In this document: positions 1 to 7,581 of the stretch, in pieces
Layout of the letters: each line of letters starts with the position of its first letter
Position numbering within the stretch: position 1 is the first letter of the stretch
Source: a virus
Lineage: Duplodnaviria > Heunggongvirae > Uroviricota > Caudoviricetes
IMG/VR virus record: IMGVR_UViG_2648501485_000016
Span: 1-7,581 of that record
Length of the DNA stretch: 7,581 nucleotides
Strand: one strand, 5' to 3'
Notes under the pieces: generated by a model
Told to the model about the DNA's origin: nothing
Databases searched by the model: none
Seen by the model: only the letters and a program-made list of their open reading frames with translations
Translations under genes and position numbers: made by a program

Positions 1-33
1 GCACTTTTTATATAAATCTATAATTATATAATT
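1..33 (-). promoter_or_regulatory. AT-rich conserved intergenic motif, copy C (promoter-like; strand uncertain)
   Basis: Plus strand 7-17 is TTTATATAAAT, followed by TATAAT at 19-24. The same core recurs at 1151-1160 and 6474-6484. It lies directly after the methylase stop codon (34-36). Truncated by the window edge. Confidence 0.4.
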
Positions 34-621
34 TTATGCCACTTGCCAGAGAGCATCATGCAACTGGATACCTCCATTGCACTGGTTGCCCCAGCCATGC
101 CAACCATCAGGTAAATCACCGCGAGCAAACAGCTCAATACGAGGAACATCACCTAACAGCCTTACCAGCTTGTCACGAACCACATCAGGCTTCCGAGAAT
201 GCTCCAGACGAGGCGATGTAAACGACTGAATGATCCCCGCATCAAGGCGGGTCGGCAATTTGCCTTTTACCGCAAACAAGCAATCTTCACTGTTTGCACG
301 AGTCATATGCCCCATCCCCATCACCAGCTTATCTGGTTGTCGGCTACCACATTTGTTCCATGTGAAGCCCTTCATGGTCATAAGCCTGAATCCCCATGCT
401 TTCACCACCAGCAACGCTTCTTCTGGCTGAGTCGGAACCCACCACATGGCCAACAAACACGATTCAGGATTAGCAAGCTGCCAGACAGGAATACGAGCAA
501 TATCCTCAGCTTTCATCGTTGGATACTTAAAACCAGCTCCACGATTCCCATCCTTACACTTATCTTTGTATTCCCAGGGGGGATCTGCATAAATCAGATT
601 AAACAATGCAATTGCCTCCAT
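34..621 (-). CDS. DNA N6-adenine methyltransferase, MT-A70 / phage Dam-like family (195 aa)
   Basis: The translation begins MEAIALFNLIYADPPWEY; DPPW is the catalytic motif IV of N6-adenine methyltransferases of the MT-A70 type. ATG at 621-619 is preceded by GGAGG about 10 nt upstream; stop TAA at 36-34. No adjacent restriction endonuclease ORF, so it appears to be an orphan methylase. Confidence 0.8.
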   Translation of the reverse strand: MEAIALFNLIYADPPWEYKDKCKDGNRGAGFKYPTMKAEDIARIPVWQLANPESCLLAMWWVPTQPEEALLVVKAWGFRLMTMKGFTWNKCGSRQPDKLVMGMGHMTRANSEDCLFAVKGKLPTRLDAGIIQSFTSPRLEHSRKPDVVRDKLVRLLGDVPRIELFARGDLPDGWHGWGNQCNGGIQLHDALWQVA

Positions 622-684
622 GTTAGTTGTGCCTCCGGCGCTTATCTCCGGCAGTCATAACGCTGGCCAGCTCTACAGCAGACA

Positions 685-720
685 CAACGAAAAGGGCACT
701 AACCAGACTGATTAATGCCC
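685..720 (-). terminator. Candidate hairpin followed by a short U run (minus-strand transcript), between the tRNA and the methylase
   Basis: Minus-strand RNA: GGGCAUU / 13-nt loop / AGUGCCC, then CUUUUCGUUG. A 7-bp stem including one G-U pair; the loop is long and the U tract short, so this is weak. Confidence 0.25.
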
Positions 721-865
721 TTGCCTGTTGTGTGCCGGATATCGCCCGACAACGCTGTTTTGGTAACACGGCTACAGTTCCGTGCCGCTCCAGCTTTTAC
801 CCCTTTGCGGATAACAGGCCCTGCCTGTACTCACTAACCAACGGCTTCCCGAAATGTGCACCAGG

Positions 866-920
866 CACGCATAAAGATGAGCACGAAGAAGTAACTCCAC
901 CGCGCTTATCTTTATGTGTG
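866..920. repeat. Imperfect inverted repeat (15-bp arms, 25-nt spacer) immediately 3' of the tRNA
   Basis: CATAAAGAT at 870-878 is the exact reverse complement of ATCTTTATG at 908-916; the arms extend to 15 bp with 2 mismatches. No U tract follows on either strand. Confidence 0.4.
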
Positions 921-929
921 AGGGTGAAT

Positions 930-1005
930 TGGTGGCCCCTACCGGATTTGAACCGATGACCGTGCGATTATGAGTCGCCTGCTCTAACCACTAAGCTAAG
1001 GGGCC
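930..1005 (-). tRNA. tRNA with anticodon CAU, closest to the tRNA-Ile2 (lysidine, AUA-decoding) type; elongator Met not excluded
   Basis: The reverse complement of 930-1005 gives a 76-nt sequence: GGCCCCTTAGCTTAGTGGTTAGAGCAGGCGACTCATAATCGCACGGTCATCGGTTCAAATCCGGTAGGGGCCACCA. It has a 7-bp acceptor stem (GGCCCCT/AGGGGCC), a D-arm, an anticodon stem-loop with U33-CAU-A37, a T-arm with GGTTCAAATCC, and an encoded CCA end. The acceptor stem and anticodon arm match my recollection of E. coli ileX; the D and T arms differ. Confidence 0.85.
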
Positions 1006-1016
1006 ATATTTGATTT

Positions 1017-1097
1017 GTTTGTCTGGTGTGGCGCCGCGCACGAAAATCCCAGCCAATAAATTCAGGATTTTTGGGCGCGGCGGCATATCAGACAAAC
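1017..1097. repeat. 81-bp imperfect palindrome (33-bp arms, 15-bp spacer, GC-rich core) between the promoter-like motif and the tRNA
   Basis: The left arm at 1017-1049 (GTTTGTCTGGTGTGGCGCCGCGCACGAAAATCC) matches the reverse complement of the right arm at 1065-1097 (GTTTGTCTGATATGCCGCCGCGCCCAAAAATCC) at 28 of 33 positions. The spacer is CAGCCAATAAATTCA. Confidence 0.7.
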
Positions 1098-1140
1098 ATG
1101 GTTGATGCGTGCGCCCATGAGAAAAGCGCATAGAATGTTG

Positions 1141-1177
1141 TAACTATATATTTATATAATTATAGAAATATATATTA
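1141..1177 (-). promoter_or_regulatory. AT-rich conserved intergenic motif, copy B (promoter-like), after the spanin stop and upstream of the palindrome and tRNA
   Basis: Plus strand 1151-1160 is TTTATATAAT. The minus strand reads ...TTCTATAATTATATAAATATATAG..., containing TATAAT and TATAAATA. Confidence 0.4.
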
Positions 1178-1384
1178 CTTTCGGCAGTTGATTTCCCATG
1201 CCCTGTTATGAGCCAGAATATCTTTCTTTGTCTGGCGGTCCATAACATCGATGTCGTGATCAGTCAGGTAGATGGGCTTTACCCAATCACAGGCGGTATC
1301 AACCACCACCGGGACGCTTCCACGACTCCCGCAGCTCGCGATCAACATCGTCATCAGCCATATGGTTAACACTCTGCTGTACAT
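1175..1384 (-). CDS. Putative o-spanin (Rz1-like outer-membrane lipoprotein, 69 aa)
   Basis: N-terminal signal peptide with a lipobox (LIASC) in MYSRVLTIWLMTMLIASCGS..., and further Cys residues in the short mature part. The gene starts inside the i-spanin gene in a different frame and extends past its end (overlapped architecture). RBS GAGGTG lies about 5 nt before ATG 1384. Confidence 0.6.
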   Translation of the reverse strand: MYSRVLTIWLMTMLIASCGSRGSVPVVVDTACDWVKPIYLTDHDIDVMDRQTKKDILAHNRAWEINCRK

Positions 1385-1577
1385 TCCCCACCTCTTTTGT
1401 CACTTCTATACGCCGCTCCGCAGTGGCTTTTACGGCGGCTGCATTCTCATTAATGCGCTGCTTTTCAGCTTCATCTTCGGCCTTTTCTCGCCCCTTCATA
1501 CGACCAAAACCAAACGCACCGAATGCAACCAATATAACGGTGCCGATAAATGACAAAACGGCTTTCAAACCAGTCAT
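1299..1577 (-). CDS. Putative i-spanin (Rz-like, 92 aa)
   Basis: N-terminal transmembrane segment (LKAVLSFIGTVILVAFGAFGF) followed by a highly charged, probably helical domain. ATG 1577-1575 overlaps the endolysin TGA stop (ATGA). Its position directly after the endolysin and the embedded lipoprotein gene support the call. Confidence 0.6.
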   Translation of the reverse strand: MTGLKAVLSFIGTVILVAFGAFGFGRMKGREKAEDEAEKQRINENAAAVKATAERRIEVTKEVGNVQQSVNHMADDDVDRELRESWKRPGGG

Positions 1578-2116
1578 ACCACCACTCGCTCTTTCATCCA
1601 GCCGTAGACAAACGACTCATTAGCCTCGCGCTTCTCCGCCAGCTCCAGATAGCGTTCGCCCTGCGTACAGTTCAGCGACGTCAGCATCACCCGTTCGCCG
1701 TCTTTTCCCCGATTCCCAAGATAAGCACGTAGCGCATTAATGGTACGTGGACCGATTCGTCCGTCTGCATCCAAATCGGGATACAGCTTCCCGCGCAGGT
1801 TGAACACATTCAGCCAGCGTTGAAGCATTTTTGACGCCACTGTTGGCCCCATGTTCACCCCCGTGTCACACAGCTCTGCGGCAATATCAGAGGATAATGC
1901 GGCCACCTGATCAAAGCGTGGTCCGTACCAGTAATCAGCCTCAAGGATTTCCAGTGCCTGTTCGCGGGTTAAATCGCGCATATCGCCACGGTATCCATGA
2001 GCACGGGCAGTGTTCTGAGTAATGCCCCACTTTGTTGGGCCTCCCTTGTCGTCAGGGTGATCCACATAGCCGCCCTCTTTTCCAAGAACGCTGTTAAAAA
2101 TCTCATCTTTGGTCAT
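1574..2116 (-). CDS. Endolysin, glycoside hydrolase family 108 N-terminal domain with a C-terminal peptidoglycan-binding domain (180 aa)
   Basis: The translation begins MTKDEIFNSVLGKEGGYVDHPDDKGGPTKWGIT, which carries the EGGY...D.GG.T..GI signature of GH108 muramidases. The C-terminal half has the PG_binding_3-like pattern (YPDLDADGRIGPRT). Confidence 0.85.
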   Translation of the reverse strand: MTKDEIFNSVLGKEGGYVDHPDDKGGPTKWGITQNTARAHGYRGDMRDLTREQALEILEADYWYGPRFDQVAALSSDIAAELCDTGVNMGPTVASKMLQRWLNVFNLRGKLYPDLDADGRIGPRTINALRAYLGNRGKDGERVMLTSLNCTQGERYLELAEKREANESFVYGWMKERVVV

Positions 2117-2399
2117 GATTAAACCCTAATGCGTCAACTATCCGCGCCAGATTGCCCCTGAAATACAGAACAACGATGCAGATAATCAGATTTCCAATAA
2201 CCACCAGCCAGTGGGATTCTTGATAAAGACCGAACACATAACGGAAGGGAACATTGGCGTATACAATGACGTAGATATAAGCCAGAAAGGAAACAAATGG
2301 ACGATGCCTGGAGTCTTTCCGTCGATAAAGCATCAGCGCCATTACTATTACTGTGCAAAGCACCGCATTAATCAGTGCTGACGGGTCACTGCTTACCAT
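2103..2399 (-). CDS. Small three-TMD membrane protein, holin or antiholin candidate (98 aa from ATG 2399)
   Basis: Three hydrophobic segments (ALINAVLCTVIVMALMLY, FVSFLAYIYVIVYANV, WLVVIGNLIICIVVLYF) and a charged C-terminus. Strong RBS GGAGGGGG 5 nt before ATG 2399. The longer ORF reading to 2435 has no RBS, so I prefer the internal start. Overlaps the upstream gene by 14 nt and the endolysin by 14 nt. Confidence 0.55.
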   Translation of the reverse strand: MVSSDPSALINAVLCTVIVMALMLYRRKDSRHRPFVSFLAYIYVIVYANVPFRYVFGLYQESHWLVVIGNLIICIVVLYFRGNLARIVDALGFNHDQR

Positions 2400-2781
2400 T
2401 TGAACCCCCTCCACGTAAGCGGGAAAGCATTCCAAAGATGCTACCGAGATCCTGGCTGTTTACGAACGTGAGGATTTTAATTGTCAATGCAGCCACAATA
2501 ACCGCACCAAGCGCATCAAGAGGACGATCGTTGTAGCTGGTCCATTTGGCAAGAAATGAGCCAACTAACGGCGCTCCAATCACTCCAACAATGAACGATG
2601 TAAAGAAATAGCCAATCAGCTTGAGACGGCTAATATTCACCGCTGTAGCAACATAGAAAACAGCGCCAGCAAATGCCCCGAATACAACGCCGTAATCAAT
2701 ACCAGTTGCAATACCAAAAACGCTGGCACCCATCAGGCCACCAGCAGCAACGGCCGTACCGGAAATTGGTTCTGCTGACAT
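2386..2781 (-). CDS. Four-TMD membrane protein, holin candidate (131 aa)
   Basis: Gly/Ala-rich hydrophobic helices (TAVAAGGLMGASVFGIA, YGVVFGAFAGAVFYVATAV, LIGYFFTSFIVGVIGAPLVGSFL, LGAVIVAALTIKIL). RBS GAGGA 5 nt before ATG 2781. It is the first gene of the lysis cassette. Confidence 0.55.
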   Translation of the reverse strand: MSAEPISGTAVAAGGLMGASVFGIATGIDYGVVFGAFAGAVFYVATAVNISRLKLIGYFFTSFIVGVIGAPLVGSFLAKWTSYNDRPLDALGAVIVAALTIKILTFVNSQDLGSIFGMLSRLRGGGSNGKQ

Positions 2782-2794
2782 TGAAATCCTCGTT

Positions 2795-2827
2795 AAAAAA
2801 AAAGCCCCGCCGAAAAAGGCAGGGCTT
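2795..2827 (-). terminator. Rho-independent terminator (minus-strand transcript), immediately upstream of the first lysis gene
   Basis: Minus-strand RNA: AAGCCCUGCC / UUUUUC loop / GGCGGGGCUU followed by 9 U. The stem is 8 GC-rich pairs (one G-U) plus 2 A-U pairs. On the plus strand there is a C-A mismatch and no T tract, so it is unidirectional. The U tract ends 3 nt before the holin RBS. Confidence 0.7.
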
Positions 2828-3010
2828 CATAAAGCAACAAATTACGCGGTAATCGCTTAACGCAGTTTTACTACGTTAAATGAAACACTACACCCAGTTA
2901 CCACCTAAAACAAGGTTTCCCCATAAAAAAACCTTCACAATGTGGTTAATCGATCGATAAAAAAACAATACTTAACTTTTGACCAACCGAACATCCCGAC
3001 CAGGACTTCC

Positions 3011-3039
3011 ATAATATTCGCCGATATGCCACTGCTTAA
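3011..3039 (-). promoter_or_regulatory. Candidate sigma70-type promoter for a roughly 210-nt leader RNA (weak)
   Basis: Minus strand TTAAGC (3039-3034), 17-bp spacer, TATTAT (3016-3011). The -35 element is poor. It sits in the 330-bp untranslated gap between the 119-aa gene and the terminator at 2795-2827. Confidence 0.25.
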
Positions 3040-3111
3040 GTTGAGTAATCTTCTCCAACTTAACTCCCATAGAGTCCAGTTTCTGCCATGTTTTCGGTTG
3101 TATGTGCTTCA

Positions 3112-3471
3112 TTACCCGCTCTGAATATCTGAATACTGCTCGTAAGCGCATGGATTCTCACTACAGCTTATCCAACCACCCGGAGTTACCGAAACTGGCG
3201 GCGCGGCATATAGCTTACGGGTCTGAACACCTGCCCCCTGACATTTCTCTTCCTCAACAAACCATTCGAAAGCACATTCCCCGCAATCTTCCCATTCTCC
3301 CCATTCATCATATTCTGCATCCCACTGGCGATACTGATATGCCACCGGTTCTGCTTCCAGCAAGGCTAACGCTATTTCATAAGCCCGGCGCTCAATATTG
3401 TCTCGCACATCCAAGCGGCCTATGCGCTCTTTGATTTCTTTAATCAGTTCTTTGTCGGTAAAAGTGGTCAT
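3112..3471 (-). CDS. Hypothetical acidic protein with Trp/Glu-rich and Cys-containing segments (119 aa)
   Basis: RBS GAGGA 7 nt before ATG 3471, which overlaps the upstream TGA (ATGA). About 25 Asp+Glu against 12 Lys+Arg. Contains EWGEWEDCGECAFEWFVEEEKC. No recognisable domain. Confidence 0.6.
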   Translation of the reverse strand: MTTFTDKELIKEIKERIGRLDVRDNIERRAYEIALALLEAEPVAYQYRQWDAEYDEWGEWEDCGECAFEWFVEEEKCQGAGVQTRKLYAAPPVSVTPGGWISCSENPCAYEQYSDIQSG

Positions 3472-3677
3472 TTGTTAATCCTCAAAACTTTATGCCCGGG
3501 CGCAAAAGCACGCGTTTTGTCTTTGCTTATTCGCCAGCCATCCTTGCGCGCCTCTTTTGCACAGCCAGCCCATGACGTACCGATATACTCACCGAAGTCT
3601 GGCACTGGATATACACCTTCCGTACACTGGCGGCAGTCACAATAGAGATGCATGGTGTAACTTGCGGCAATAGCCAT
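3468..3677 (-). CDS. Hypothetical small Cys-rich protein (69 aa), possible zinc-binding
   Basis: Strong RBS AAGGAG 6 nt before ATG 3677. Contains HLYCDCRQC ... C. Stop TGA overlaps the next gene's ATG. Confidence 0.55.
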   Translation of the reverse strand: MAIAASYTMHLYCDCRQCTEGVYPVPDFGEYIGTSWAGCAKEARKDGWRISKDKTRAFAPGHKVLRINK

Positions 3678-3678
3678 A

Positions 3679-4308
3679 TCATTCTCCTTTGATGCGAATA
3701 CCAGCAGCGCGGATTGCAGCGATGACTTCAGAAACTTTGTATGCCATTACCGTTTGGTAATCCTCGTGAAAATCTGTTCGATGAAGCATGCTGCTACGTT
3801 CTGGGAGCGATATTTCCCGTGCTTCCAGTTCTGCAATGCGCTTCTCTGCGGATTCCAACGCCGCAACCAATTCGTCTACAGTTCCGGCAGCTTGCAGTGC
3901 GTAATCGGTAATAGCCATCTCATGATCAATTTCAGTACCGTTCTCATTCGTTGAGGTGATAGCAAAATAATCAGAGTCGATTTCGTTATCAGCTAAGTGG
4001 CGTAGCGTATCGGCAACAAGCCGGCCGTTTTCGATTAGCAGCTTCCCTACCGTAAGCGCAATATCCTCGTTCTCCTGGTCGCGGCGTTTGATGTATTGCT
4101 GGTTTCTTTCCCGTTCATCCAGTAGTGCCAGCACGGTTTCTGGTCCGGCCAGAAATTTGAAGGCGTTGAGCGCATCAATATCCACACCGTAATCTTTAAG
4201 TTCCTGTTCACTTAACAAATCATCATCAGCTGGCAACATTAACAGGCGTTCCATTGCTGGAATTGCACGTTCCGCCGCCTCACGCAGTGCCTGATAGTCA
4301 ATTGTCAT
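3679..4308 (-). CDS. Hypothetical strongly acidic protein (about 209 aa from ATG 4308)
   Basis: ATG 4308-4306 overlaps the upstream TGA (ATGA), with AAGGA 8 nt upstream. The ATG at 4317 directly abuts the Shine-Dalgarno sequence, so I prefer 4308. About 44 Asp+Glu against 23 Lys+Arg. No recognisable catalytic motif. Confidence 0.6.
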   Translation of the reverse strand: MTIDYQALREAAERAIPAMERLLMLPADDDLLSEQELKDYGVDIDALNAFKFLAGPETVLALLDERERNQQYIKRRDQENEDIALTVGKLLIENGRLVADTLRHLADNEIDSDYFAITSTNENGTEIDHEMAITDYALQAAGTVDELVAALESAEKRIAELEAREISLPERSSMLHRTDFHEDYQTVMAYKVSEVIAAIRAAGIRIKGE

Positions 4309-4949
4309 TCTCGCCATCCTTCACAGTTGTAATCACTACAGCCTTCAAAATCATATGGGCTGTACTGCCAGGTTATTTTTCCGCAATGCGGACAATTCCA
4401 ACGCACCTTCCCGCTTCGCGACTTCTTTCTTCTGTTCTGCTCTTTCAACCAGTCAGGCATGACCAAACCTGCGCCCTGAACCATTGTTCTGCGGTTAAAG
4501 TTATTGATATTGAACGTCCGGCGCTTTGCTGCATCAGCAATGGAAAATGGCAACCAAACTATTCCTGGTTCGTTTTTGTTGACGACGCTAAAGATGGTCG
4601 CTTTACTGAAGTCATCTGTTGGCAATCCACCGTGTTGAAGCCAGTAAACATCGTTGCCGTTCCAGCTACCTTTTTTGTAGGCCACATACTCAGTGCAATC
4701 TGACTCAATCAGGCTTTCTGTAGGGATGTACTGGCAATCAACGTGCCACACAGCCATTGCATCCACACTATCGGCACAAACAGGCTGATCGATATCTCGC
4801 CCACAATTCCAGGCTTTTTGGGCTTCTTCCAGCGTGTAAATATGAGCGCGATCGATATCAGAACTGTAACCATTGCCGTTATGGCAATGGAATGAGGCGT
4901 TATTACCCACAGTTTCACGCAAGCACATCATGTAAAAACGGTTACTCAC
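4305..4949 (-). CDS. Hypothetical Cys-rich protein with a C-terminal zinc-ribbon-like segment (about 214 aa from GTG 4949)
   Basis: GTG 4949-4947 is preceded by AGGGGG at a 6-nt spacing. The TTG at 4973 listed in the ORF track has no RBS. C-terminus reads ...WNCPHCGKITWQYSPYDFEGCSDYNCEGWRE. Confidence 0.55.
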   Translation of the reverse strand: MSNRFYMMCLRETVGNNASFHCHNGNGYSSDIDRAHIYTLEEAQKAWNCGRDIDQPVCADSVDAMAVWHVDCQYIPTESLIESDCTEYVAYKKGSWNGNDVYWLQHGGLPTDDFSKATIFSVVNKNEPGIVWLPFSIADAAKRRTFNINNFNRRTMVQGAGLVMPDWLKEQNRRKKSRSGKVRWNCPHCGKITWQYSPYDFEGCSDYNCEGWRE

Positions 4950-5625
4950 TGGTTGCCCCCTGAATACGCTCAAACTCGATTACCCACACCCAGGGATTAG
5001 CGTTCCAACTATCTTCGCCATAAATTGATTTCCATAGGCTACGGAAACCTGGGTAATGCTTATCGCCAATGAGGGTCGATTCTGTTGGTGCGCCCTCAGC
5101 CCTTGCATCGCATTCGCTGATATCGTTCAACCGCTCAACGCGCACGTTGGTAATTTCCAGAAGAATGCGCGATGCCCAGCGCGGCATGTGAATTGATGGA
5201 CACCACCCGCCATCAAATTTTTCATTCACAGTGTGAGGTTTCCAGTCGGCATCATCGGGTATCGACCACAAGCCATAATCCCCCGGTTTTTGCTCACAAC
5301 TGGCTCGATAAATCCTTGCTGCGTTCTTCTCATCGCCACGACAAAGGTTGTCGTTCCAGTCCACACTGCAACCATCCTCATTGCCTAATATCGCCCACGC
5401 TTCACGGACCCATATGCGATCACCAACGTTACCGAACGGGCATAAACTATGTTCAGGTGCATCCATAACGTGGGTATAGACACCATTGCGTTTCTTTGTC
5501 GGTTTACGGATAACCAGGCAGTTATCGGCCCTGACATTTTTTACAGGTCGGCGAGTCTGCGTCTTCCTGCCTTCGAGGATGGCCCTAACCATATCGTCAT
5601 TAAAAACAACACCACGTTCTTTCAT
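4942..5625 (-). CDS. ASCH-like (PUA-fold) domain protein with a C-terminal extension (227 aa)
   Basis: N-terminus MVRAILEGRKTQTRRP ... GDRIWVREAW fits the ASCH pattern (G-x-K-x-x-x-x-R, then GD-x-hydrophobic). RBS AAGGTGG 7 nt before ATG 5625, which overlaps the upstream TGA. Confidence 0.6.
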   Translation of the reverse strand: MKERGVVFNDDMVRAILEGRKTQTRRPVKNVRADNCLVIRKPTKKRNGVYTHVMDAPEHSLCPFGNVGDRIWVREAWAILGNEDGCSVDWNDNLCRGDEKNAARIYRASCEQKPGDYGLWSIPDDADWKPHTVNEKFDGGWCPSIHMPRWASRILLEITNVRVERLNDISECDARAEGAPTESTLIGDKHYPGFRSLWKSIYGEDSWNANPWVWVIEFERIQGATSE

Positions 5626-5813
5626 TTAGAAGCCACCTTGTTCAATTTCCGGCGACAAGACACGCAATCATCAGGACTCTCAAAAGTGTCTGGCTCACGG
5701 TAATCACCAAAATACATCCAACGGCCGCAAATGCTGGTTACTTCACCTTCATTAAAATAATGATGTTTATTCGCCTTCATTGGCCTGACCCATCCGGCAT
5801 TTTTCTTGCTCAC
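5622..5813 (-). CDS. Hypothetical small Cys-containing protein (about 63 aa from GTG 5813)
   Basis: GTG 5813-5811 overlaps the upstream TGA (GTGA) and is preceded by GGGAGGAG at a 5-nt spacing. The ORF-track ATG at 5876 has no usable RBS and would overlap the upstream gene by 67 nt. Contains C-x19-C-x2-C. Confidence 0.5.
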   Translation of the reverse strand: MSKKNAGWVRPMKANKHHYFNEGEVTSICGRWMYFGDYREPDTFESPDDCVSCRRKLNKVASK

Positions 5814-6175
5814 TTCAACTCCTCCCGACGACGTTCCTGAAGCTCTAGCATTGCGGCTCGGAAATCCTGCCACCATTCCTCATCTGCAACGGGGGTGTTC
5901 CGCTCCAGCACCTTGTCCGCATCGGCGATCAGGTTTGACAGACTCTTGTCTGAAATCTTCGTTACCGGAGTCGTTGGTTGCTCAACCTGCCCGATAGGTT
6001 TTATCGTGCTCAAAAGGAGGCGACGGCGGGAAAGTGGTGCCCCACAACGACGGCCATCTTCCTTGCGATATGTTTCTTTCGGACCAACACACCAGGTTGT
6101 CGGCGTTTCGCGTAACTTCACTCTTTTCTCACCATCATTGGTAATGATTATTCCGGTATGGGTTTTGATGCTCAT
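5810..6175 (-). CDS. Hypothetical protein (121 aa)
   Basis: RBS GAGAGGGG 7 nt before ATG 6175, which overlaps the upstream TGA (ATGA). Basic N-terminal half, acidic C-terminal half. No recognisable motif. Confidence 0.55.
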   Translation of the reverse strand: MSIKTHTGIIITNDGEKRVKLRETPTTWCVGPKETYRKEDGRRCGAPLSRRRLLLSTIKPIGQVEQPTTPVTKISDKSLSNLIADADKVLERNTPVADEEWWQDFRAAMLELQERRREELK

Positions 6176-6453
6176 GCCACAGCCCCTCTCAACGGCTTTA
6201 CTTTGGCTAATAAGGTGTTAAACAACATGGAGTTAGGATTCATGCCAAATGGCAATTCCGGTTTAGCGGAGTAGTACAGGCAACCATTTATTTTCCTGGT
6301 TGTTATCTGTCCTTCGGCAACCATGCTTCTCAGTCTGCAACGCATAGAGTTCTGCGACACACCAATGTGTTCCGCGATTACGTCCACTTTTGAACATGGG
6401 TGATCGGTCAGGAAATTAATCACATCTTGGGGGTTAATAATTTTGCGTTTCAT
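6172..6453 (-). CDS. Small winged-helix DNA-binding protein (PapI/FaeA-like pattern), first gene of the small-gene operon (93 aa from ATG 6453; alternative ATG 6474)
   Basis: The segment INFLTDHPCSKVDVIAEHIGVSQNSMRCRLRSMVAEGQI fits a helix-turn-helix / winged-helix layout resembling small PapI/FaeA-type regulators. AAGGA lies about 10 nt before ATG 6453. ATG 6474 abuts the AT-rich motif with no Shine-Dalgarno sequence. Confidence 0.55.
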   Translation of the reverse strand: MKRKIINPQDVINFLTDHPCSKVDVIAEHIGVSQNSMRCRLRSMVAEGQITTRKINGCLYYSAKPELPFGMNPNSMLFNTLLAKVKPLRGAVA

Positions 6454-6473
6454 TGTCGAGGCGTCCTTATACA

Positions 6474-6500
6474 TTTATATAAATATATAATTCTATATAC
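6474..6500 (-). promoter_or_regulatory. AT-rich conserved intergenic motif, copy A (promoter-like), immediately upstream of the winged-helix gene
   Basis: Plus strand 6474-6484 is TTTATATAAAT and 6486-6491 is TATAAT. The minus strand reads GTATATAGAATTATATATTTATATAAATG. It sits between the hairpin at 6500-6519 and the first gene of the operon. Confidence 0.45.
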
Positions 6501-6519
6501 GGCGGGAGACATCCCGCCG
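6500..6519 (-). terminator. Perfect 8-bp GC-rich hairpin 11 nt after the stop of the upstream gene (terminator-like; no clean U tract)
   Basis: CGGCGGGA (6500-6507), loop GACA, TCCCGCCG (6512-6519). On the minus strand it is followed by UAUAUAGAAUU. Confidence 0.4.
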
Positions 6520-6530
6520 TAGGCTTACTG

Positions 6531-7581
6531 TCAGGCTTTCAATAGCGATTCTTTCAGATATCGGGCATCAGCCAGGGCGTTTGGAGTAATCTTGCGAACC
6601 CATGCATTACGGGTTGGACTCCACTTAAAGGCGCGTGATTTAAGCAGCGAACGAATGTTTGCCTCTGGTTTGCCAGGGAAATAAAACAGGATGCGGTTAT
6701 CCTCTGGATCTATCTCCATAGAAAAGCCGTCGTATTCTTCGCGCTGTGCTCCTGTTACAGACTTGACCGATTCAAGCTCCTTAATACGGCTCTGTAGTCG
6801 TTTGATTTCGGCATTATTGTTACTCAGTGAGTATGAAGGGAAGCCAATGTGCCCACAGAAATCTCCGGCGAGTAACCCTTTGGCTTCGCTTTCAGTAAAC
6901 TCAAGGTCAATTAATGCGGAAAGCTGCTGTAATTGGTCTTTTTTGTATTTGCGAATAGCCTTATTTGCGGCCTTCATTTTGATGTGTGACTTCATGCAGC
7001 CTTGCAGCTTACGAAGCAACTTAAATAGCGCATCAGGATCATCAGACGAAACTCCATTACGGCCGACACCTGCGGCTTTGCTTTCGTAGTACGATGCTCT
7101 GCTTTCACACTCAACAAACGATTTTCTGAATAACGCATCAGCTTTAGACAAACGGCGGCGATGGCCTTTCGCGCTATAATGGTCAACTAAAATCGGCTGG
7201 CCTAACGGGATCACATCCAACAGTTCATGCGCTCGCTTATGCGCCACCGCACCTTCTTTTCTGGCTTTTTCTGCACGAGCAATATATCGGGCAAGACGCG
7301 CGTTCTGGCGTTCCTGATAGGTATTTACGTAATCATCTCCGCGCTGCTGCTGTTCAAGCCATGCTTTGCGCAGCTTTTCTGTTACGTCTACCAACTCTGC
7401 AGGGATACAACCTGTTTGGGATTCATAAGAGTGACCATCCTCATAAAGACGTCCATCGTCTTCAACAACGAAAAAGGTTTCGTGCTCATCGCTTTTGACC
7501 ATACGGCCATTAACATGACGTAATCTATAGCCAGTATCAGTGCTCAACAGGCTGTTAGGGTTGTTGATCCAGTCAGAAATA
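6531..7581 (-). CDS. Hypothetical protein, 3' portion only (at least 350 aa; continues beyond the window edge); possible DUF3560-like region
   Basis: The reading frame stays open from the TGA at 6531 to the window end. The ORF-track start at 7547 is a TTG with no RBS, so the true start is upstream of the window. The motif LGQPILVDHYSAKGHRRR resembles what I recall of DUF3560; this is unverified. Confidence 0.65.
   Translation of the reverse strand, partial: ISDWINNPNSLLSTDTGYRLRHVNGRMVKSDEHETFFVVEDDGRLYEDGHSYESQTGCIPAELVDVTEKLRKAWLEQQQRGDDYVNTYQERQNARLARYIARAEKARKEGAVAHKRAHELLDVIPLGQPILVDHYSAKGHRRRLSKADALFRKSFVECESRASYYESKAAGVGRNGVSSDDPDALFKLLRKLQGCMKSHIKMKAANKAIRKYKKDQLQQLSALIDLEFTESEAKGLLAGDFCGHIGFPSYSLSNNNAEIKRLQSRIKELESVKSVTGAQREEYDGFSMEIDPEDNRILFYFPGKPEANIRSLLKSRAFKWSPTRNAWVRKITPNALADARYLKESLLKA

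Follow-up and report, generated by a model that had tools for sequence, protein, structure and literature searches.

The window analysed here is the 7,581-nucleotide (nt) stretch at positions 1 to 7,581 of the IMG/VR virus record IMGVR_UViG_2648501485_000016, in which all genes lie on the minus strand. The subject is the intrinsic terminator that stands in front of its lysis genes, together with the factor by which transcription may pass it. The lysis genes were assigned via PHROGs, and the holin, endolysin and spanin cassette proposed earlier from the letters of the window was borne out. The first gene behind the terminator encodes a holin of 131 amino acids (aa) (2386..2781; phrog_198, expect value (E) 1e-40), named 'phage holin family protein' in RefSeq. 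It is followed by a second holin (2103-2435), a GH108-type endolysin (1574-2116), an Rz-like spanin (1299-1577) and an Rz1-like spanin (1175-1384), all on the minus strand. The two holin-family open reading frames (ORFs) overlap by 50 nt (2386-2435, minus strand) and may represent a holin/antiholin or two-component holin pair.

The terminator occupies 2795..2828 on the minus strand, with the sequence GAAGCCCTGCC-TTTTTC-GGCGGGGCTTT. Its stem (2828-2818 / 2811-2801) has 11 pairs, 7 of them G-C, the loop is TTTTTC, and 9 T are found at 2803-2795. It is the top-ranked terminator-like site of the window. The folding energy was -20.5 kcal/mol, compared with -7.6 +/- 2.5 for shuffled sequences (z-score -5.2), and 0 of 200 shuffles were as good. 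Terminator-like sites as a class were not enriched over the whole window (9 found versus 6.8 +/- 2.0 expected); the terminator is distinguished by its strength, not by the site count. Behind the T-run, which ends at 2795, the order is AAC, GAGGA (2791-2787), TTTCA and the holin ATG (2781-2779), with the holin ribosome-binding site and start codon within 2779..2791. The gap between the T-run and the holin Shine-Dalgarno sequence is only these 3 nt (AAC), and neither a consensus scan nor a position-weight scan detected a promoter between the terminator and the holin ATG. An intrinsic terminator before the lysis genes, without a promoter after the terminator, is the arrangement of a lambda-type tR'. 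The sequence-only reading had described a minus-strand terminator with 9 U which ends 3 nt before the Shine-Dalgarno sequence and leaves no room for a promoter. Both descriptions were verified, and its conclusion that the lysis genes can be reached only via terminator read-through, as at lambda tR', holds.

The noncoding leader in front of the lysis genes runs from 2971 to 2782 and is 190 nt long. An untranslated leader of 330 nt directly behind a 119-aa gene had been claimed, and both parts of that claim were wrong. The first 140 nt of the supposed leader (3111..2972) are coding and are covered by a conserved 59-aa ORF (2972..3151, minus strand; ATG at 3151), and it is this ORF that adjoins the leader. 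About half of the positions of the 59-aa protein are conserved in the Salmonella lineage (locus L026) and the L034 lineage, including the motifs FRYSER.MK and QLKQWH.G.YYG. The ORF is annotated in phage vB_YpM_41, and a tblastn search of the phage collection returned matches in the three Yersinia phages only. The next gene upstream is an acidic accessory ORF of 119 aa (3112..3471, minus strand; phrog_5117, phrog_60 and phrog_660, function unknown). Its DNA matches in other phages carry EaA/DUF551 annotation, and no match to a Q antiterminator family was found for it. The two ORFs overlap by 40 nt in different frames (3112-3151, minus strand), and the stop codon of the 119-aa ORF is joined, as TAATG, with an internal ATG at 3111.

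A promoter had also been suggested at 3039..3011. The site exists as TTAAGC-17-TATTAT and scored 9.5 bits, the second best on the minus strand in the position-weight scan. It was rejected as a promoter, being a by-product of coding: it lies inside the 59-aa ORF, where its -10 hexamer corresponds to Tyr-Tyr codons. It is not conserved either; the last T of the -10 is C in the Salmonella and L034 lineages, and the site is absent from E. coli variants with a different upstream gene.

Forty copies of the leader, drawn from plasmids, viral contigs and metagenomes, were compared; 30 were unique. A conserved noncoding block of 113 nt (2859..2971, minus strand) begins directly behind the upstream ORF's stop codon. 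Every leader variant starts exactly at the stop codon of its upstream gene, whichever gene this is, which indicates a mosaic junction at 2972/2971. The core of the block, 2915-2859 (CCTTGTTTTAGGTGGTAACTGGGTGTAGTGTTTCATTTAACGTAGTAAAACTGCGTT), is near-invariant in the 30 unique variants across the E. coli, Salmonella and L034 lineages. The conservation of the block exceeds that of the flanking genes, and the block (2971-2859) is present in a single copy in the 48-kb genome. Between the block and the terminator lies a variable A/U-rich linker (2829..2858, minus strand), in which the lineages share only a UUGCU motif.

A homologous leader and terminator were found in Salmonella (L026 3230-4603 and L027 3230-4603) and in L034 (past 4589) in front of an unrelated lysis cassette, composed of a 95-aa protein, a lysozyme and a 184-aa protein. 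The terminators of these two lineages have another sequence and the same stem (-16.5 and -17.6 kcal/mol). Across the three lineages, the stem is kept with one compensatory pair (C-G to U-A) and two one-sided changes. Because the homologous leader and terminator precede different lysis cassettes, modules are exchanged exactly at the terminator. The block together with the terminator is a module placed ahead of whichever lysis genes follow.

The source element of the window is a myovirus-type phage-plasmid of about 48 kb. This identity is based on its plasmid location and on the presence of repA, parA and a repressor gene together with phage early, lysis, head and tail genes. The leader was detected in 70 of 5,426 complete E. 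coli genomes, and in 71 of 72 places it was plasmid-borne, mostly on plasmids of 46-51 kb. In PLSDB it was found in 61 non-mobilizable plasmids (57 Escherichia, 3 Salmonella and 1 Klebsiella). The 48,488-bp plasmid of E. coli ATCC 25922 (L002; NZ_CP009073) is 100% identical to window positions 3130..2760. It carries repA, parA, an XRE-family repressor gene and P2-like tail genes, and its early, accessory, lysis, head and tail genes form one long co-directional block. Counterparts of this repressor in distant relatives carry Peptidase_S24. The closest phages to the window are the Yersinia myoviruses vB_YpM_39/41/44, with 97% identity over 72% of the window length; a literature search on these phages returned no match. 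The element pSLy3 was dropped as a relative, since it is an unrelated SSU5-type element.

The terminator in front of the holin is not the only one. A terminator-like hairpin with 14 pairs and a weak T tract lies at 692..722 (minus strand) of the window, after a transfer RNA (tRNA) gene and before an MT-A70 methyltransferase gene, and corresponds to L002 31845-31875. On the L002 coding strand, strong terminators stand straight before a Shine-Dalgarno sequence and ATG at 33133-33156 (-18.8 kcal/mol) and 33832-33852 (-15.3 kcal/mol). All three lie 5' of the terminase, head and tail genes, and the last two are wedged between late genes without room for a promoter. With at least three more same-strand terminators between later genes, the whole late expression therefore needs processive antitermination.

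The sequence-only reading had noted no recognisable Q gene upstream. This is true for the ORFs of the window: nine upstream ORFs were searched against Pfam and PHROGs, and none matched a Q or N family. The lack is partly an effect of the window edge, which cuts a DUF3560 gene (6531..7581, minus strand) 17 nt after its ATG. Just past position 7581 lie the promoter of this gene, which is the second copy of a 127-nt repeat described below, and a Q-like gene encoding 125 aa. The 125-aa ORF is located at L002 25468-25845, with its stop codon 187 nt past window position 7581. It lies about 4.3 kb upstream of the terminator, after Ref-like nuclease and DUF1064 resolvase genes. This position agrees with that of Q in the lambdoid gene order. 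The gene was found in 9 of 9 clade loci that extend far enough, and it is about 90% identical across the three lineages.

An exhaustive profile search yielded 130 cluster representatives of the 125-aa family. A profile of 113 representatives was compared with 177,635 PDB sequences, and the only protein matched was Q21, the Q protein of phage 21 (6jnx_P and 6p18_P; E 3.5e-5, 27 bits). Profile positions 4-91 were aligned with Q21 residues 11-95. A single-sequence PDB search with the 125-aa protein and a search with the close-family profile were non-significant. The Pfam family PF06530, which is the Q21/Q933W family (bioRxiv 10.1101/651190), was matched by 10 of the 113 family members at E <= 0.01 (best 1e-4) and by 1 of 24 members of the close family (E 0.074). 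For an AlphaFold model of the 125-aa protein (predicted local distance difference test, pLDDT, 77), the best Foldseek matches were Q21 entries, with a template-modelling (TM) score of about 0.5 and a non-significant E. Weak Sigma70_r4_2 and Sigma70_ECF matches were seen in family members, and Q21 carries a sigma-4-like helix-turn-helix (PMC6606751). Membership in the Q21 family is thus supported by remote homology, not by Pfam thresholds. From these comparisons, the 125-aa protein is most likely a divergent member of the Q21 lineage and would be expected to act as an antiterminator. The earlier proposal had offered either a divergent antiterminator or a different timing mechanism. The first is supported as a divergent protein antiterminator by the remote Q21 homology; the second is not needed, because a Q21-homologous protein is encoded just outside the window.

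Taken together, the favoured interpretation, to which a probability of roughly 0.6 is assigned, is that the terminator is a tR'-type gate opened by a divergent antiterminator of the Q21 family whose gene lies just past the window edge, in a switch like that of lambda and phage 21. The hairpin at 2828-2795 would head a late transcription unit of about 27 kb that comprises the lysis genes, then the tRNA and methyltransferase genes, and further on the head and tail genes. An RNA polymerase that enters from upstream would stop at 2828-2795 and at the later intrinsic terminators. The 125-aa protein, product of the last gene of the early operon, would convert the polymerase to a termination-resistant form. 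The timing of lysis would then follow the accumulation of the Q-like protein, as in lambda. We infer both the antitermination by the 125-aa protein and the place where it loads.

Related elements show similar arrangements. Chromosomal prophages with the same holin family carry Q genes of PF06530, PF06323 or PF03589, and their terminators lie within about 50 nt of the holin start. In one of them (L013), a Q-adjacent promoter-like site is located 1.4 kb upstream of its holin terminator. Distant phage-plasmid-like elements with the 125-aa family have one or more terminators right before the lysis genes. In L064, whose Q-like protein is 58% identical, three tandem intrinsic terminators are found in a 600-nt gap before the lysis genes (12278-12846), and in L067 a hairpin of -21.8 kcal/mol stands about 12 nt before the lysis-gene ATG. 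In L064, a promoter-like TTTAAC-17-TATGTT is also seen between the first and second terminators; the gap resembles an upstream-operon terminator followed by a pR'/tR' cassette.

Two candidate loading sites for the antiterminator were identified. Candidate A is a 127-nt unit with three copies in L002 (16207-16333, 25901-26027 and 32531-32657) that are 83-96% identical. The unit contains AT-rich iterons, a promoter-like TTTACA-17-TAAGGT/TATGGT/TAGTGT and an AGGAAA-N3-TTTCCT palindrome, which is a 6-bp inverted repeat in the spacer. The copies share an identical 5' untranslated region (UTR), Shine-Dalgarno sequence and ATGA start. The three copies stand at the head of three different operons, the Salmonella and L034 lineages have retained the unit, and its promoters look co-regulated. 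Copy 2, just past window position 7581 and after the Q-like gene, heads the operon that ends at the terminator, which lies 3.7 kb further on. Copy 3 stands ahead of the two downstream terminators. The distant relatives L063-L065 lack the unit, although L064 has iteron-plus-promoter units of its own, and in the Salmonella and L034 lineages the Q-like gene does not adjoin it. As a universal Q site, the 127-nt repeat is therefore weakened.

Candidate B is a pR'-like promoter within the leader block, TTGTTT-17-TAGTGT (2885..2913, minus strand), which scored 7.3 bits in the position-weight scan, at the 99.96th percentile. It is conserved in all lineages, and its sole variant, TAACGT, retains T1, A2 and T6. 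Copy 1 of the 127-nt repeat has the same -10, TAGTGT, in its promoter. Transcription is predicted to start near 2878; stopped at the terminator, the RNA would measure about 85 nt and be a counterpart of the lambda 6S RNA. A -10-like TAGTAAAAC, a candidate pause element, lies 5-13 nt past the predicted start, with the terminator about 80 nt further on. Such spacing is that of the canonical cassette, and it would explain why the block is conserved. The 5' half of the block holds further sigma-70 promoter candidates (TTGATC, TTAACC and similar); these were inspected by eye and rejected for want of a usable -10. The data slightly favour site B over site A, since only B accounts for the near-invariance of the block, though computation alone does not decide between them.

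The leader was also analyzed as an RNA. The 190-nt leader folds better than its shuffles (z-score -3.6), and the small hairpins claimed for it are indeed present. A composite hairpin (2900..2946, minus strand) consists of P1, which encloses P2. P1 pairs ACCAC (2946-2942) with GUGGU (2904-2900) and is invariant with one break. P2 pairs AAGG and U7 (2935-2925) with a purine run and CCUU (about 2921-2911). Three P2 pairs have changed from U-A to A-U in Salmonella, and many P2 pairs show U-A/U-G switches. Hairpin 2, UUAACGUAG-UAAAA-CUGCGUUAA (2857..2879, minus strand), has a folding energy of -12.4 kcal/mol (z-score -4.5), and its loop region holds the -10-like TAGTAAAAC (2873-2865). It is invariant, so it offers no evidence of covariation; within the leader and terminator, covariation is confined to P2 and the terminator. 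No Rfam family reached its threshold for the leader, and a BLAST search of the leader against the more distant relatives L063-L065 gave no significant similarity. An attenuator-type pairing between block and terminator was rejected, as the terminator arms vary between lineages and the block does not.

Two further observations concern the same block. A mini-ORF of 8 codons at 2924-2898 (minus strand), AUG GGG AAA CCU UGU UUU AGG UGG UAA, would encode MGKPCFRW. It has an invariant GAAGG 7 nt upstream, the observed AUG to GUG and AGG to AGA changes preserve the ORF, and length variation in the region is restricted to the U-run that precedes the start codon. In L034 and L044, however, the second codon is UAA, and U-purine pairing in P2 accounts for the variation just as well; the coding status of the mini-ORF is equivocal. 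In L002, ACCAC-N5-GTGGT palindromes (13018, 22602, 23360 and 23462) flank the XRE-family repressor gene and precede repA, and they are probably operators of this repressor. The leader P1 arms (2946-2942 and 2904-2900) are the same pentamers, placed 37 nt apart, and the leader TTAACCACGATAT resembles the operator TAATACCACATAT. This likeness may be due to chance, as the two 5-mers occur 30 and 61 times in 48 kb.

Several results weigh against a Q21-type gate. The 125-aa protein itself reached no Pfam threshold, that of PF06530 included, and a shallow hhalign comparison of its family with two canonical Q proteins was non-significant (E 0.21). Its gene lies 4.3 kb from the terminator and does not adjoin the promoter-terminator cassette as in textbook cases; directly upstream of the leader promoter candidate there is no Q gene, the neighbours being the 59-aa ORF and the accessory genes. 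In the Salmonella and L034 lineages, another gene stands between the Q-like gene and the 127-nt promoter. Candidate B failed the stricter consensus scan, with 6 of 12 consensus positions. A TGAGCA-type direct-repeat Q-binding element between -35 and -10 was not found at either candidate promoter, and no Q-binding element or sigma-dependent pause element has been demonstrated. Finally, the compensatory changes in P2 suggest that the 5' half of the block acts as an RNA, which candidate B alone does not explain. The block may be a pR'-like Q-loading promoter or an RNA element.

The RNA interpretations were weighed accordingly. One is that the block is a new phage-plasmid regulatory RNA coupled to the lysis gate. 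It would act either as a conditional cis element like HK022 put or the Bacillus EAR element, controlled, for instance, by translation of the mini-ORF at 2924-2898 or by the repressor, whose operator half-site the block resembles, or as a 3' UTR-derived or 6S-like small RNA (sRNA) with a G/U-rich seed and host mRNA targets in the plasmid state. We regard this as speculative and somewhat unlikely.

Another view, which we consider unlikely, is that the terminator is mainly the 3' end of the accessory operon. The 190-nt 3' UTR, or an RNA of about 210 or about 85 nt, would serve as an Hfq-type sRNA in the plasmid-prophage state, and lysis would occur by residual read-through. This is partly compatible with a Q-operated gate; the gating of lysis would be a by-product. 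The features of such an RNA are present: a structured 5' part, a conserved G/U-rich single-stranded stretch (2899-2880), the A/U-rich linker and the 9-U terminator. The sub-threshold Rfam matches of the leader are all of Hfq type, namely GcvB at 31.8 bits (E 4e-4), Spot 42 and MicL. In Stx phages, a short pR'-terminated RNA acts as an sRNA (StxS). However, the GcvB match (RF00022) is below the gathering score of 42, it drops to 28.4 bits in L034, and the Salmonella locus gave no match. A GcvB-like identity was rejected as below threshold and not reproducible, and the match is treated as an effect of composition and terminator. Among 65 phage translation-initiation regions, the best target duplex was -25.8 kcal/mol, no better than shuffled seeds (-26.8 +/- 2.0). 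The passage of lysis and structural genes past four terminators would be left unexplained, and leaky read-through of a -20 kcal/mol, 9-U terminator is a poor route to about 27 kb of late genes.

It is less probable still that the block hairpins (P1/P2 and hairpin 2) by themselves make the polymerase termination-resistant, without a protein, in the manner of HK022 put or the Bacillus EAR element. In favour of this, the block directly precedes the first terminator, occurs once in the genome and is more conserved than the flanking genes. Its fold is better than that of shuffles (leader z -3.6; hairpin 2 z -4.5), and the U-A to A-U changes in P2 are compensatory. On the other hand, all transcripts reaching the terminator carry the block, so that a put-like element acting unconditionally would leave the terminator without a purpose. 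A regulated alternative fold was not found, and the invariance of the block next to a varying terminator speaks against pairing between them. The covariation is limited to one lineage-specific event in a mostly invariant block, no Rfam family is at threshold, and a Q21-like gene is present.

A very doubtful alternative is that the 125-aa protein is a sigma-region-4-like activator or a small sigma-like factor for an unrecognised late promoter, with the terminator merely insulating the late genes from early transcription. The weak Sigma70_r4_2 and Sigma70_ECF matches in family members and the apparent co-regulation of the 127-nt repeat promoters would fit this role. With 3 nt between the T-run and the Shine-Dalgarno sequence, such a promoter would overlap the terminator hairpin. 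Furthermore, the Q21 profile match spans the N-terminal 85 residues, outside the sigma-4-like helix-turn-helix, and two further terminators sit tightly between late genes without promoter room. A nut-like function of the block, with a boxA-like TGATCGATTAAC, P2 as boxB, and a small basic early protein acting with host Nus factors, is highly improbable. Its place shortly before the first terminator recalls lambda nutR-tR1, and by eye the Salmonella sequence TGCTCAATTAAC is similar to the rrn boxA TGCTCTTTAAC. This boxA/nut assignment was nevertheless rejected as not conserved, the boxA-like stretch belonging to the more variable portions (TGATCG / TGCTCA / TGACCA). The P2 loop sequence varies between lineages, unlike a boxB loop, the early ORFs have no N-like family match, and there is a single such site in the genome.

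Other features of the phage-plasmid were recorded alongside the gate. A tRNA gene with a CAT anticodon lies at 930-1005 (minus strand), between the spanin genes and the methyltransferase gene; it is called Met by ARAGORN and Ile in the RefSeq record of the ATCC 25922 plasmid. Weak matches to the rydB family of Rfam at 27-29 bits (gathering score 50) were found at window 624-679 (minus strand), L026 5642-5705 and L034 6932-6991. They occupy the same spot in three lineages, just 5' of the MT-A70 methyltransferase gene, which suggests a conserved structured 5' UTR for this gene. TATA-rich iterons, repeating every 8 bp (e.g. TATAATTATAGATTTATATAA), occur at many places in the phage-plasmid. They are found in the window at about 6468-6503 and about 1138-1177 (both minus strand) and in L002 at 16204, 21357, 22065, 22138, 25890, 25898, 27115, 31392, 31400 and 32528. 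They lie on either side of parA and 5' of every 127-nt promoter unit, and the distant relative L064 has its own AT-rich iterons in corresponding positions. The iterons resemble partition or silencing sites with a second role as operators.

With the 125-aa protein as probable antiterminator, the apparent anomaly of the locus is removed: a lysis cassette without a visible switch now has a likely one. That switch would be a branch of the Q21 family invisible to Pfam, with at least 130 cluster representatives in public data; the inspected records are all labelled 'hypothetical'. The element is common, being found in 70 of the 5,426 complete E. coli genomes, among them that of the quality-control strain ATCC 25922. 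The ultra-conserved leader block offers a small target for the Q-loading site of this new branch or for a phage-plasmid regulatory RNA.

Among known systems, HK022 put and EAR resemble this locus in having a conserved RNA-like element, with structure, that directly precedes the first terminator. They differ in that no model matches here, an unconditional element would cancel the terminator, and a protein candidate exists. AlpA of Pseudomonas aeruginosa works on the alpBCDE lysis genes in a cell-death locus of the chromosome, at a promoter that its terminator follows directly; the present system belongs to an entire phage-plasmid whose late genes span about 27 kb. Lambdoid prophages with the same holin family, such as L008, L013, L011 and L012, likewise place a terminator at most about 50 nt from the holin start, and their Q genes lie 1.5-2 kb upstream with other DNA between. 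They are chromosomal, however, and have textbook Q genes and a holin leader of the form CCCCTC...GAGAGG...AGAGGGGG.

The Q protein of phage 21 and Q933W (PF06530; 6JNX, 6P18-6P1C) is linked to the 125-aa protein by remote homology and is of similar size, and the two may share a fold in which an N-terminal helix packs on a sigma-4-like helix-turn-helix body. The protein described here is about 35 residues shorter (125 aa vs 162 aa), stays below Pfam thresholds, and the candidate promoters lack the TGAGCA-type direct repeat. With the lambda Q/pR'/6S/tR'/S-R-Rz system, the locus shares a strong terminator before the lysis genes as the first late genes, co-directional late genes behind it, an antiterminator gene (here a candidate) at the end of the early operon, and possibly a short terminated RNA. 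Unlike in lambda, the candidate belongs to the Q21 lineage rather than the Q-lambda lineage. Its gene is 4.3 kb away, and an exchangeable operon of accessory genes, which has a promoter of its own, stands between it and the gate. The terminator borders on the holin ribosome-binding site and is followed by three or more others, and the leader promoter is weak and putative. With its tight multiple terminators and distant antiterminator gene, the switch would represent the lambda logic rearranged in phage-plasmids.

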